From a virus, in the IMG/VR virus record IMGVR_UViG_3300050501_000322: a DNA stretch of 64,000 nt; one strand, given 5' to 3'. Every line of letters starts with the position of its first letter. Position 1 is the first letter of the stretch. A program made the position numbers and the translations under genes. The notes beneath the pieces are model-generated. The model saw nothing but the letters and a program-made list of their open reading frames with translations. It was not told the origin of the DNA and did no database searches. Positions 2,337 through 6,206 of the stretch are shown one piece after another.

Positions 2337-2525
2337 GTGGCCCACCCTGAAGACGGCCGGCGCCCCGGCGACTCGTGTCGCCACAATAAGACCTTGGATA
2401 CCGGTTACTCGCACGGGATGCTCAAGTGGCGGTGTGGGTGCGGGCTCGAGTGGCTATCGGTTGCAGAGCCGGGGCAGGCGCCGCGGACGAGTCTCTTGTT
2501 TCCGAATCAGGGGAAGAAAAAATGA
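2337..2525 (+). CDS. small Cys/His hypothetical protein (62 aa)
   Basis: GTG 2337 fills the gap between coupled genes; CRH...WRCGCG. Confidence 0.4.
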   Translation: MAHPEDGRRPGDSCRHNKTLDTGYSHGMLKWRCGCGLEWLSVAEPGQAPRTSLLFPNQGKKK

Positions 2526-3796
2526 GTGAGCTACGCAAGGCAATCGAGGCCGCCGAGGAGTGGCGCAACGATCCGAACCGTCTCGGACTACCGATCGAAG
2601 AAGTCTGCGGCCTGATAGCCGCAGCCGAAGCCGCCGAGCAAGCCCTGCAAGCCGAACGCCTCCGCCGCGTCGACCCCGAGCGGCACGAGCAAGTCAGGAC
2701 GGAGCTGGCGGAGACGTCGCGGGCCCTGCAAGCCGAGAAAGAACTGCGATCACATGCTGTGCGAACAGGCATCGCGCTTGCGAAAGAACTGGAGGCGCTG
2801 CGGAAGGTGGAGCAGGCGGCGCGGGAGATGTACCGCACATGGATGGAACGCGCGGCGCTGGATTGGACCGACCTGCTGCAAGCCCTCGCTGCAGCCCGCG
2901 CCACCCGGGGGCAGACCGACCCTCCTGGTGTTGGAGACACGATCGACGGCGCTAGCGTCGAGGTAGTCGAAAACGTCGTAAGCATCTCGGTTACCGGTCA
3001 AAGACTTGTGCCAGCGGCCCGTTCGGAGGCAACTCCGATCGACGGCACTCACTCCGGGAGAGCGGGCCTGCAACCCCGTAGTGCGTCACGGCTCGACGTA
3101 GGCGACCCAACCGCAGGGGACTGTGAGCCGCGCGGTGACAGCCGGGAGAGACCGGCACTTTCCGAGCCCCAGCCCACCCCGCAGCCGGACGCGGGGGCTG
3201 ACCGCTGCGCACGGTTCAACGACACGACTGGCGCGCTCACCTGGAACTACCAAAGCGCAAGCCTGCACCCGGATCGTTGCAAGTGTCAGGGAAACGAAAC
3301 CACGCCACACAAGCACTACGCCTATCCGCCGTACGCATGCGCGCGGTGCTCAGACTGCAAGGCATACGAGCCCGCTGTCGCCGCCTCCCACCGGGCAGCG
3401 GAAGGCGCGGTGGGTGATCCGCTGGTCGTCACGAGGTCCGGGGCCGGCGTGCATGTCCTAGCGGACTGCCTAATCGAGATCGGCCAGCTTCGCGAGATGC
3501 TGCGAAAGGCAGAGGCGGATGCCGTTTACCACTCTGGACAGCGGCAGAAGCTGCACGAGGAGCTGAAAGCTGCCGAGGCGCACCTCTTGGCCTGGGCCGG
3601 GGTGGCGCGTGAGAAACAAGCCAGGATTCAAGCGGCCGAAGCGGAGCGGGATGAGCTTCGCGCGAAGCTCTTCACCACAGAAACCCATTTGCTGGCCTAC
3701 TGGATAGGCCGACCCAGCTTCGAAACTGCAGAGCTCGCAAGAACCATCTTCGAAAATCGAGAAAGAGGAGTATCGAATGACCAAAAAGATCGATGA
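2522..3796 (+). CDS. coiled-coil hypothetical protein with a Cys-rich patch
   Basis: ATG 2522 overlaps the upstream stop; heptad-rich ends; CARCSDC in the middle. Confidence 0.55.
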   Translation: MSELRKAIEAAEEWRNDPNRLGLPIEEVCGLIAAAEAAEQALQAERLRRVDPERHEQVRTELAETSRALQAEKELRSHAVRTGIALAKELEALRKVEQAAREMYRTWMERAALDWTDLLQALAAARATRGQTDPPGVGDTIDGASVEVVENVVSISVTGQRLVPAARSEATPIDGTHSGRAGLQPRSASRLDVGDPTAGDCEPRGDSRERPALSEPQPTPQPDAGADRCARFNDTTGALTWNYQSASLHPDRCKCQGNETTPHKHYAYPPYACARCSDCKAYEPAVAASHRAAEGAVGDPLVVTRSGAGVHVLADCLIEIGQLREMLRKAEADAVYHSGQRQKLHEELKAAEAHLLAWAGVAREKQARIQAAEAERDELRAKLFTTETHLLAYWIGRPSFETAELARTIFENRERGVSNDQKDR

Positions 3797-4457
3797 CCGT
3801 TTCAGCCCGGCCCGACTCTACGACCGCTATCGCGTCACCATCTCCGTTCGCGACCGCATCTGCGGCGGGATGCCCAAGAACCCGGACCTGATCAAGAACT
3901 GGGTCGAGGCGACGACCGGCTACGCCGACGAGATCTCAGAGAAGCTCGTCCAGGAGAACGCCGAGCTCGTCGTCAATGAAGTCGCGGAGAAGTGCTGGAA
4001 CGGGTTTCCGGAAGACCCTGTGCGTGGCCTCTTCGTGCCGTGCCGAAACATCAAGGCATGCTTGAAGCAGTCAGCGCAACTCCTCGGCATCTACAAGCAA
4101 AAACGCGGCTCGAAGCAGATCATGGCCGAAGGCATGGAGGTGAAGGGTCAAGAGCTCGACGGACGCACCGATCGCGTTTACTTGCAGGGCAAGAAACAGC
4201 CCGACGGTACCGACGAGAGCGCGATCCATGTGATGACCGCGCAAGGACCGCGGACAGCTTTGAGAAGAATGGACTACGTCACGCAGCCGACGCTCTCGTT
4301 CGAGATCTGGGTCCTGAAGACCGCCGCGCAAGAGACCAGGCACATCGGCGAAGAGCAGCTCGTCGAGATTCTGACACACGCCCAGGAGAACGGCCTTGGA
4401 GCTTCAAGGAGCCAAGGCGAAGGCAAATTTTCAGTCGTCGAGTTTCAGAAGATCTGA
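3777..4457 (+). CDS. stand-alone Cas7-like RAMP (RRM-fold) protein
   Basis: SD AGAGGAG; N-terminal strand YRVTISVRDRICGG, LFVPCRNIKACLKQSA (RAMP IPxxxxKG-like helix), C-terminal Gly-rich loop NGLGASRSQGEGKF; no other cas gene in the window. Confidence 0.8.
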   Translation: MTKKIDDRFSPARLYDRYRVTISVRDRICGGMPKNPDLIKNWVEATTGYADEISEKLVQENAELVVNEVAEKCWNGFPEDPVRGLFVPCRNIKACLKQSAQLLGIYKQKRGSKQIMAEGMEVKGQELDGRTDRVYLQGKKQPDGTDESAIHVMTAQGPRTALRRMDYVTQPTLSFEIWVLKTAAQETRHIGEEQLVEILTHAQENGLGASRSQGEGKFSVVEFQKI

Positions 4458-5074
4458 CCGAAGCGACACTCCGAGTCGGCGCCTTCCAACGCGACTACCC
4501 ATCCCGAGCCGCGACCTTCCGAGTTCCTTCCGAATCGACAAGCCACTCCTCGCCCACCCCAAACTGCGCGACCTACCAACTCGCGGCCGCGCCCATGACC
4601 AATCCCGAGCCGCGACCTTCCAGCGCGACACTCCGAATCTAACCCCGCCAACGCGACGTTCCGTAACCGATCGTTCCAACGCGACTACCCACGCCGCGTC
4701 AAGCCAACCCAACGCGACGAGACTGTCCGAGTTCCTTCCGACGCGACGAACCGAGCCACGACCATTTCCACCCATCACGACCTACCAACTCGGCCCTGCA
4801 CGAAGCGACAAGCCACTCCTCGTCCACCCCAAACTGCACGACGTACCAGACCTTTTCTCTCCTACGCGACAAACCGGGTCGTTCCGAACCAACGCGACGT
4901 TCCGTAACCGATCGTTCCAACGCGACGTTCCGTAACCGACCAACGCGACACGCCCCCTACCTGCGCGACACGCTACGCCGTTCCGTCCCCAAGCACGAGC
5001 CGGCGCGACGATACTGTCCGGGCCACTCCCATTCCTACTTCTACGCGACATTCCAGGCCTAACCAACCCAAACC
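4458..5074 (+). repeat. pentamer-periodic array: (NNN-CC)n-NNN-GCGAC units of mostly 23-33 nt; candidate guide-RNA array
   Basis: About 22 (G/A/T)CGAC delimiters (e.g. 4463, 4491, 4568, 4653, 4681, 4714, 4805, 4866, 4894, 4922, 4945, 5045) separated by 5-nt blocks ending in CC/TC/AC; spans RAMP stop to the next ATG. Confidence 0.9.
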
Positions 5075-5728
5075 ATGACCACCCCTCCCGCCCTGCACTC
5101 GAGCACCACCCAGGAACACCTCACTCCCGCCGACGTCGTCGAAGCAGGGCGCGCGACGCTCGGCGGGTTTGACCTCGACCCAGCCACGACACCGTTCGCG
5201 AACGAGCTCGTCCAGGCGACCAAGATCTACACGCGCGCCGACGACGGCCTGGTCCAGCCCTGGCACGGCCGCGTGTTCCTGAACCCGCCGGGAGGCTCGC
5301 TCGACGAGGTCGTCTGCGGCACGCGTTCGAACCAGGCGCTCTGGTGGGGGCGCCTGGCGAGCGCCTGGGCGTCCGGCGAGGTCGAAGCGGCCATCTTCGT
5401 CGGCTTCTCCCTCGAGCTCCTGCAGGCCGCCCAGAGCCTCGTTCCGGCCGTCCCACAGCCGCTCGACTTCCCGGTCTGCATCCCGAAGAAGCGCATCAAG
5501 TTCGACGTGCTGGCCGACGACCTCCTCGCCCGGCTCCGGGCCGAGTATGAGACCATCCCGGCCGGCAAAGTCGACCGGCTCGCGAGGATGACCAACCAGA
5601 TGGTTCGCCTCGAGCAGCTCCGGGGCCAGCGAGTCTCTGGCGACCAGCCGACGCATGGGAACATCATCGTCGGCGTGGGCGTCCGCGATCTGTCGGCGTT
5701 CAACGAAATTGGTTACGTTCGCTATTGA
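5075..5728 (+). CDS. phage N6-adenine DNA methyltransferase (Dam-like family)
   Basis: FDLDPA (motif I-like), DDGLVQPWHGRVFLNPPG (motif IV-like). Confidence 0.8.
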   Translation: MTTPPALHSSTTQEHLTPADVVEAGRATLGGFDLDPATTPFANELVQATKIYTRADDGLVQPWHGRVFLNPPGGSLDEVVCGTRSNQALWWGRLASAWASGEVEAAIFVGFSLELLQAAQSLVPAVPQPLDFPVCIPKKRIKFDVLADDLLARLRAEYETIPAGKVDRLARMTNQMVRLEQLRGQRVSGDQPTHGNIIVGVGVRDLSAFNEIGYVRY

Positions 5729-6206
5729 ACGCAAACGACCGGCCGAACGGCCGAACGGGCGCTTCGCCTAACAAGTCGCCTAACAATAACGCGCTGCATT
5801 ATGAAAATAAACCCCAAAATGATCGTTTTTCTGCGGTGCATTATGAAAAATAATTCTGTGCGTCAATTTGAGACGCAACGCGCTAATTCGGGAGGTCAAA
5901 ACAAGAAACATTCGGCCGGCTCATCAAAAAATATTTGTTTGGTGATTTGTTAGTTACTTATGTATTTGATATTCTTTATTTATTCTACATAGTCTAATAA
6001 ATAACATGAAATTTGATAAAAAATAGAAAGGGTAGATAAAATAGATAGATGTAGGATATTTTAGTTTTTAGATGTAAGTATTTATCCTACAGTTTGACAT
6101 GTACGGGGGGGACCTAGTATAAGTAGTGGATCGACTGACCCCTCTTCCCCCCAAATCGTTGAATAAATACCTGGAGGCCAGAAAGCTTGACTAACTGAAC
6201 GGGGGC
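5729..6206. other. AT-rich non-coding region, candidate replication origin
   Basis: Only strongly AT-rich tract in a GC-rich genome; TGCATTATGAAAA at 5795 and 5837; inverted repeat TGTAGGATA (6050-6058) / TATCCTACA (6083-6091); directly upstream of the primase-helicase. Confidence 0.6.
6094..6123 (+). promoter_or_regulatory. sigma70-like promoter for the replication operon
   Basis: TTGACA (6094-6099), 18 nt, TATAAG (6118-6123). Confidence 0.5.

Follow-up and report, generated by a model that had tools for sequence, protein, structure and literature searches.

Genes and features at the locus

The window analyzed here is a 64,000-nucleotide stretch of viral DNA (IMG/VR record IMGVR_UViG_3300050501_000322). 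It carries a gene for a 226-residue stand-alone RAMP protein, followed by a 617-base non-coding array that occupies the entire gap between the RAMP stop codon and the next ATG, the start of a Dam-like methylase gene (5075-5728). The array is C-rich and G-poor, with a GC skew of about -0.4 across its length. No Shine-Dalgarno motif precedes the ATG at 5075. The features are listed below, with the basis for each in parentheses.

3777-4457, + strand: Vipr-like stand-alone RAMP gene, 226 aa (AF2 model, structure matches, hhalign)
4458-5074, + strand: pentamer array of about 23 units (unit map, autocorrelation, GC skew)
4497-4520, + strand: 24-nt segment (repeated at 4598-4621, 96% identical)
4518-4533, + strand: 16-nt segment (repeated at 4726-4741)
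4531-4578, + strand: 33-nt unit with flanking tags, copy 1 (92% identity to 4801-4848 over 48 nt)
4648-4685, + strand: tag-unit-tag block, copy 1, with the 28-nt unit at 4658-4685 (38-nt exact identity with 4889-4926)
4801-4848, + strand: 33-nt unit with flanking tags, copy 2 (match to 4531-4578)
4843-4870, + strand: 28-nt unit with a TTTTC pentamer (homologues in related loci L015 and L016 are 23 nt long and lack TTTTC)
4889-4926, + strand: tag-unit-tag block, copy 2 (38-nt identity; TRF period-28 array)
4927-4949, + strand: third tandem copy of the 28-nt unit, shortened from 28 to 23 nt, with TCGTT missing (sequence comparison)
5044-5086, + strand: conserved last unit that extends into the beginning of the next gene (100% identical to L015)

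Upstream of the RAMP gene lies a 456-aa ORF (2426-3796) with Cys-rich and coiled-coil segments. It shares 20 nt with the start of the RAMP gene, an arrangement that could mean translational coupling. This ORF has no Pfam or PHROG match and no counterpart beside the RAMP gene in relatives. Downstream, an AT-rich tract (5729-6206; GC down to 25%) separates the methylase gene from a primase-helicase gene. It contains sigma-70-like promoter matches at 5966-5993 and 6013-6042 and short tandem repeats at 5736-5786, and may be an origin, a promoter region, or a foreign insert. A Pfam scan of the 64 ORFs in the window matched a tyrosine integrase, a family A DNA polymerase, ThyX, a PD-(D/E)XK nuclease, a cpYpsA SLOG protein, and sugar-pathway genes. 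The virus looks tailless, and the integrase would hint at a temperate lifestyle.

Within 4458-5074, a repeat search found no inverted repeats, and the array folds no better than shuffled sequences on either strand (z-scores of +0.86 and +1.67). No promoter was predicted near the array, and promoter and terminator motifs occur there without excess. Several other identities were tried and rejected. A known RNA family was set aside as there is no Rfam match, and a coding repeat because the periods are 5, 23, 28, and 33. A 179-aa ORF at 4396-4935 was discarded as a gene, since it matches only inside the arrays of two related loci (L001 and L017; 57 aa) and no conserved ORF emerges. A CRISPR array was likewise dismissed, as there are no direct repeats of at least about 23 nt with near-constant unconstrained spacers.

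The array is built of GCGAC tags and NNN-Y-C pentamers

Read on the gene strand, the array parses as GCGAC punctuation followed by pentamers of the form NNN-Y-C, with runs of three to six pentamers between successive GCGAC marks. The constant element measures 5 to 10 nt and the variable tracts 13 to 48 nt, with a C at each fifth base. A position matrix compiled across many arrays (296 distinct units, with lengths of 23, 28, 33, or 38 nt) gives C at 90 to 100% in pentamer position 5, C at about 77% and T at about 18% in position 4, and near-free positions 1 to 3. Read from the opposite strand, the pentamer becomes G-R-NNN, its third base weakly biased.

The GCGAC mark mostly shares two bases with the preceding pentamer, so that the distance from tag to tag is 5n+3; where the mark is in register, the distance is 5n (20 or 40 nt). 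In the window, 11 of the 17 tag spacings are 5n+3 (binomial p = 7.6e-5): seven of 28 nt, three of 33 nt, and one of 13 nt. Units off this rule measure 20, 24, 27, 17, 19, and 40 nt. Across about 40 related arrays, 360 of 613 spacings are 5n+3 against an expectation of 20% (p = 8e-98). The first-pass annotation of this DNA, made from the letters alone, had proposed that a 5-nt register is what is conserved in the array, and that the array evolves in whole units and exact 5-nt steps. The register holds, both in the window and in the related arrays; the word "exact" overstates it, since 41% of the 613 spacings are not 5n+3 and the second commonest class, 5n+4, makes up 19%. Autocorrelation of 4458-5074 bears out the same period, with z of 5.9, 3.2, and 2.7 at lags 5, 10, and 15 and of 4.8, 5.7, and 5.5 at lags 23, 28, and 33.

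The repeats on which the earlier proposal had been built were all recovered. The unit at 4658-4685 is identical over 28 nt to 4899-4926, and 4927-4949 is a copy of it from which 5 nt (TCGTT) are missing. The 33-nt stretches at 4540-4572 and 4810-4842 differ at two positions, one at a Y position and one in the tag. A 20-mer recurs at 4501 and 4602, and a 16-mer at 4518 and 4726. The 28-nt identity grows 10 nt leftwards through the preceding tag, to 38 nt, and ends exactly at the downstream tag, indicating that the copied piece is tag-unit-tag. Among 1000 shuffled versions with every tag and CC dinucleotide kept in place, exact repeats reached 22 nt at most, compared with the 38 nt observed; the repeats in the array thus exceed chance.

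The adjacent gene encodes a RAMP protein with a predicted Cas7 fold

Lone viral RAMP proteins with pentameric RNA arrays are known from the VIPR systems. According to the preprint that describes them, a VIPR pairs a lone viral RAMP (Vipr) with vrRNAs, each made of 9 to 16 GGY/NN pentamers and a structured tail; it recognizes double-stranded DNA by a gapped code and targets rival mobile elements (10.64898/2026.04.26.720920). The same preprint distinguishes seven types, some with NNNGG, YNNNG, or NNNNG repeats, and states that arrays may be staggered or interspersed with ribozymes. In a type II VIPR, cryo-EM shows one Vipr protomer per 5-nt repeat (10.64898/2026.04.26.720927). A later preprint adds further non-canonical motifs, among them GAC/NN and CAC/NN (10.64898/2026.10.21.760802).

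Neither Pfam nor PHROG gave a match for the 226-aa protein. Its fold from a single sequence was unusable (pLDDT 39), and an AF2 model built from a 120-sequence alignment reached a pLDDT of 87.7. The solved structures closest to this model are Csm3, Cmr4, and type VII Cas7: VIA gave a Z of 12.6 to Csm3 (9g9a_D), with an rmsd of 3.5 Å over 161 residues, and Foldseek gave E values of 4e-8 both to Cmr4 and to type VII Cas7. The protein is therefore predicted to have a Csm3/Cmr4-like Cas7 fold. A C-terminal glycine-rich loop (G-loop) is invariant across the 120 homologues. The family counts at least 180 homologues, and a profile search recovered 1554 clusters at 50% identity, of which 900 have E ≤ 1e-10.

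Profile comparison suggests a weak relationship of this family to bona fide Vipr proteins. Alignment by hhalign to the Vipr family of Escherichia phage SUSP1 gave an E value of 7e-4 at a probability of 26%, over 137 colinear columns that include helix 1 and the G-loop. Against the canonical Vipr of a related locus, L012, it gave an E value of 0.0028. A tblastn search from the 226-aa family did not reach SUSP1. The residues D177 and W178, with which SUSP1 Vipr contacts G, align to Ala and Ser in the 226-aa family; R179 is kept.

C-rich pentamer arrays accompany the RAMP gene across distant relatives

Scans of viral, metagenomic, and genomic collections yielded 54 loci with a RAMP homologue, a set that leaves out the closest relatives (P0003 to P0008, 85 to 90% identity). 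Among the first 53, period-5 C-rich arrays adjoin the gene, upstream and/or downstream, in 42, and array-bearing relatives extend to about 30% protein identity. In all 42, the C-rich strand is the gene strand. One to three array copies flank the RAMP gene per locus, and no neighbor of the gene other than the array is conserved across the 53 loci.

The relatives are mostly IMG/VR viral and metagenome contigs; among 185,579 species genomes there was one match, in a 5-kb MAG contig. This match, the 54th locus (CAZGRL010000209.1; 5.4 kb, binned in an Anaerolineaceae MAG), also has a C-rich pentamer array, with the tag consensus CATTGCGAC. This contig is probably a viral fragment and not evidence of a host. 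The RAMP homologue of an isolated phage, Microcystis phage Mae-JY09, is 28% identical and also has such an array after it. In this region (L056:3712-4231, at the right end of the genome), the array consists of C-rich pentamers with CGAC tags and ends in a perfect 14-bp GC-rich hairpin (~4135-4165), near the end of the linear record.

One locus carries both kinds of system. In L012 (positions 3025-4895; IMGVR_UViG_3300033150_000513), two RAMP paralogues lie adjacent on one strand. The first, at 3161-3736, is a canonical Vipr (E = 5.5e-12 to the SUSP1 family); its five GGC-NN vrRNAs have a common GGCAAGTCAAGG-type tail. The second, at 3974-4636, is a member of the 226-aa family and is followed by a short GCGAC/NNNCC array. 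Two array types side by side on one strand suggest two orthogonal codes in one virus. For reference, we checked the SUSP1 locus itself, where GGT-NN repeats lie on the vipr strand and flank a 195-aa gene.

Arrays change by duplication and exchange of tag-bounded units

The first-pass annotation held that the units diversify by duplication, slippage, and recombination rather than by Cas1-Cas2 acquisition. Duplication stands, in the form of the 38-nt copy in the window, and recombination is seen in cassette swaps and multi-unit indels between related arrays. L005 and L006 match at 100% for 217 nt leading up to a single site and for about 130 nt beyond it, where L005 ends. The site falls exactly between two tags: one array has a 43-nt unit there, and the other has two unrelated units, of 23 and 28 nt, in its place; no donor of either cassette was found among the related loci retrieved. 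L002 and L004 differ only by a 210-nt block bounded by two CCCGAG direct repeats. In a subfamily at about 30% identity, L048 and L049 differ by one replaced cassette and a net length of 81 nt in an otherwise identical array. Between L018 and L019, the differences come to no more than two neighboring substitutions and, just beyond the last unit, a 1-nt change in a homopolymer.

Slippage did not find the same support. The 5-nt TCGTT deletion has no flanking microhomology, and only the 210-nt indel of L002 and L004 lies between 6-nt direct repeats. The claim that Cas1 and Cas2 take no part agrees with the window, where neither is among the 25 listed of the 37 Pfam families matched by its 64 ORFs.

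The annotation also implied that related arrays should gain and lose multiples of five bases. In pairs of highly similar units that align with a single gap, the gap is 5 nt in six cases, 10 nt in three, and 15 nt in two, with one case each of 1, 4, and 9 nt; the resulting 11 of 14 is partly circular, because unit lengths are themselves quantized. Transitions between length classes do occur among homologous units. Duplication and recombination reshuffle units, and both leave the origin of new variable triplets unexplained.

The array of the window can be aligned to those of L015 and L016 at the last unit only, and the flanking genes are 81 to 84% identical in nucleotide sequence. This comparison does not demonstrate faster-than-neutral turnover, as that identity allows neutral drift alone to erase the alignment. 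The last unit and the first 12 nt of the next ORF (5044-5086) are 100% identical to L015:2669-2711. The RAMP genes of the window and L015 are 84% identical, and the genes downstream of the array then diverge.

A VIPR-type guide array is the favored interpretation

The locus shares its architecture with VIPR. Vipr proteins are RAMPs with an RRM core, a G-loop, and a thumb, and the Cas7 fold and invariant C-terminal G-loop of the 226-aa family fit this build. The RAMP gene stands alone outside a CRISPR locus, with no other cas gene among the listed Pfam matches of the window; tandem pentamers with fixed and hypervariable positions flank the gene; and the location is predominantly viral or proviral. 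The canonical GGY/NN repeat is absent from the family's arrays on either strand, as is the tract of 9 to 16 repeats with a structured 3' tail, and the 53 loci contain no conserved RAMP neighbor that could be an accessory vap gene. We therefore file the module as a VIPR variant. On balance we consider it likely that the array is a guide-RNA array of a VIPR-type system, with the 226-aa gene encoding its Vipr-like RAMP.

This interpretation draws on the strong period-5 and 5n+3 signals, the Cas7 fold, and the profile alignment with SUSP1 Vipr. It is further supported by the presence of arrays beside the gene in 42 of 53 loci while neighboring genes are not conserved, and by L012, in which a canonical Vipr with GGC-NN arrays lies directly beside a member of the 226-aa family with its C-type array. 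The position matrix, the modes of array change, the vipr-strand GGT-NN repeats of SUSP1, and the protomer-per-repeat binding and alternative consensuses in the VIPR preprints speak for it as well. It is weakened by the weak sequence homology to bona fide Vipr proteins and by Ala and Ser at the G-contact sites. The canonical motif, tract, and tail, a vap gene, a promoter, and targets were all unfound, and 41% of spacings are off the rule. An untranslated C-rich RNA would, moreover, be a good Rho substrate, which also counts against it.

The earlier description of the units as guides rests on homology to VIPR, and our searches found no target. For the SUSP1 VIPR, reprogrammed units have been shown to silence a reporter with the predicted target. 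Readings as triplets and as doublets with skips of 0 to 3, run against 295 kb of related loci, gave no excess over reversed or shuffled decoys, in a comparison of low power. Within the window, self-targets amounted to 12-nt matches at the level of chance and a single match of 17 nt that includes a mismatch.

By analogy with the published systems, we infer that the array would be expressed as RNA from one strand, that this RNA would be bound by one protomer per pentamer, and that the 226-aa family would target DNA. Each protomer would hold the fixed bases and present the variable ones for gapped pairing with the double-stranded DNA of rivals. The fixed part would be the pyrimidine-C dinucleotide on the gene strand and the free part the other three bases, in short runs of three to six pentamers set apart by the GCGAC mark. 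The 5-nt step would then be the footprint of one RAMP subunit, as shown for type II VIPR. If one protomer binds each repeat, array length should change in 5-nt quanta; an indel of another size would shift the pentamers after it out of register with the protein filament and so be removed by selection. The repertoire changes by copying of tag-bounded units, by swaps of entire cassettes among array variants, joined at shared tags, and by multi-unit deletions. In this scheme, the common GCGAC tags would supply the microhomology for unit duplication and cassette exchange, and adaptation enzymes would take no part.

Which strand is transcribed bears on the code. We favor the gene strand as the probable one, because all arrays are co-oriented with the gene and run from stop codon to start codon, and because the canonical vrRNAs that we checked are co-oriented with vipr. 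Should the functional RNA instead come from the opposite strand, G-R-NNN would equal the published NNNGG consensus with a short GTCGC 3' tail, and the system would belong to an ordinary listed VIPR type. This alternative has some appeal. NNNGG, YNNNG, and NNNNG repeats all appear in the VIPR preprint (10.64898/2026.04.26.720920), and on the minus strand each unit would open with a repeat tract and close with a constant element, the order found in canonical vrRNAs. A weak pyrimidine bias (51 to 82%) marks the base that follows the two purines, and two of the five canonical vrRNAs of L012 are preceded by TCGC. We nevertheless regard it as the less likely reading: the C-rich strand is the gene strand at 42 of 42 array loci, the stop-to-start extent of the arrays leaves no room for an antisense promoter, and the canonical vrRNAs of both SUSP1 and L012 are co-oriented with vipr. 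The two codes suggested by the same-strand array types of L012 and the lack of conservation of the G-binding residues also speak against it.

A second alternative keeps the RNA and changes its role, making the array a decoy or sponge that titrates a rival Vipr, host CRISPR Cas7 or Cas5 (by mimicry of the 8-nt crRNA 5' handle), or Rho. The tags do resemble those type III crRNA 5' handles that end in GCGAC. A literature search on the handle gave no CRISPR paper, and handle mimicry was set aside. RNA anti-CRISPRs and decoy vrRNAs do exist, and runs of three to six pentamers are short for a guide. Against this, relatives with as little as 30% protein identity still have the CGAC core, a conservation that points to co-evolution with the virus's own protein and not to mimicry of diverse hosts, and a sponge would have no need of hypervariable triplets or cassette turnover. 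We consider a decoy or sponge improbable.

The array could also act as double-stranded DNA, as iterons for a DNA-binding protein in replication, partition, or packaging. It does lie in the replication module, 1.1 kb upstream of the primase-helicase gene and next to an AT-rich tract. The primase, methylase, and other neighbors are, however, not conserved beside the arrays of relatives, where the RAMP gene alone is; one to three array copies flank that gene, and three hypervariable bases in every five are not iteron-like, so that we give this reading very little weight. A decaying pentanucleotide microsatellite without function, for which tandem duplication and 5-nt steps would be typical, is the least credible of all, given positions fixed at 90 to 100% beside free ones across relatives with 30% identical proteins, a strand and neighbor that are always the same, and a conserved tag that bounds the units.

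Returning to the VIPR-type guide array, we put forward, tentatively and as a minority view among the forms it could take, that the family constitutes a separate and very large VIPR class (about 900 clusters at E ≤ 1e-10). Such a class would use a code of Y-C and three free bases in GCGAC-punctuated mini-guides of three to six pentamers, would exchange tag-bounded cassettes between co-circulating viruses, and would be orthogonal to GGY/NN VIPR, as in L012.

The natural history of these arrays is a modest new contribution. The available parts of the VIPR preprint texts contain nothing that we found on indels, slippage, or diversification, and to that extent leave open how guides are gained without an adaptation machine. 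The natural variants described here offer an initial view: a swapped cassette or a block of units can be all that distinguishes two otherwise 100% identical arrays, sister units vary by complete pentamers, and tags serve as recombination junctions. The family further extends the known code, to a combination of two fixed with three free bases that is read in short, punctuated runs. If the gene strand is the functional one, the protein would be a Vipr that recognizes C rather than G, possibly with another target-skip rule, which would be of relevance to the engineering of orthogonal programmable DNA binders.

Comparison with known systems

The module resembles the Csm3/Cmr4 backbone of type III CRISPR-Cas in its closest solved folds, in the 8-nt constant element before a variable tract, and in an RNA length that would be laddered by subunit footprint. 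Type III crRNA lengths step by 6 nt, whereas the step here is 5 nt, and the variable tract here itself carries fixed bases. Long repeats, a Cas6 hairpin, Cas10, Cas5, or Cas11, and an adaptation module are all absent here. TIGR-Tas systems (PMC12045711) are similar as non-CRISPR guide arrays in phages without adaptation genes; they differ in having a Nop-domain effector and an 18-nt array period, and both protein and array are unrelated to the VIPR-like module described here.

The non-canonical VIPR arrays of the 720920 and 760802 preprints share with it the pentamer period, an adjoining Vipr-like fold, and a deviant fixed motif. A C-type repeat on the gene strand and GCGAC-punctuated short runs go unmentioned in the available texts of both preprints, and the arrays are set apart from them here by description rather than by comparison of logos, so that they may overlap with a published type.

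The closest likeness in organization is to the type II VIPR of SUSP1. Both are virus-borne, with a lone small RAMP that has a G-loop and a thumb, and in both, the gene is flanked upstream and downstream by non-coding 5-nt repeats in tandem, which combine fixed with hypervariable positions and lie on the gene strand; neither has CRISPR repeats or Cas1 and Cas2. In SUSP1, the fixed part is GGY with two free bases, the runs comprise 9 to 16 pentamers, a structured tail of about 30 nt is present, the array amounts to a few RNAs of about 100 nt, and the operon has an accessory vap gene. Here, the fixed part is Y-C with three free bases, the runs comprise three to six pentamers, the mark is a GCGAC element of 5 to 8 nt, each array holds 20 to 46 abutting units, no vap gene is conserved, and the G-contacting residues of the SUSP1 G-loop are replaced. 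VIPR as a kind has been known since the 2026 preprints, and the 226-aa family is a distinct variant of it.
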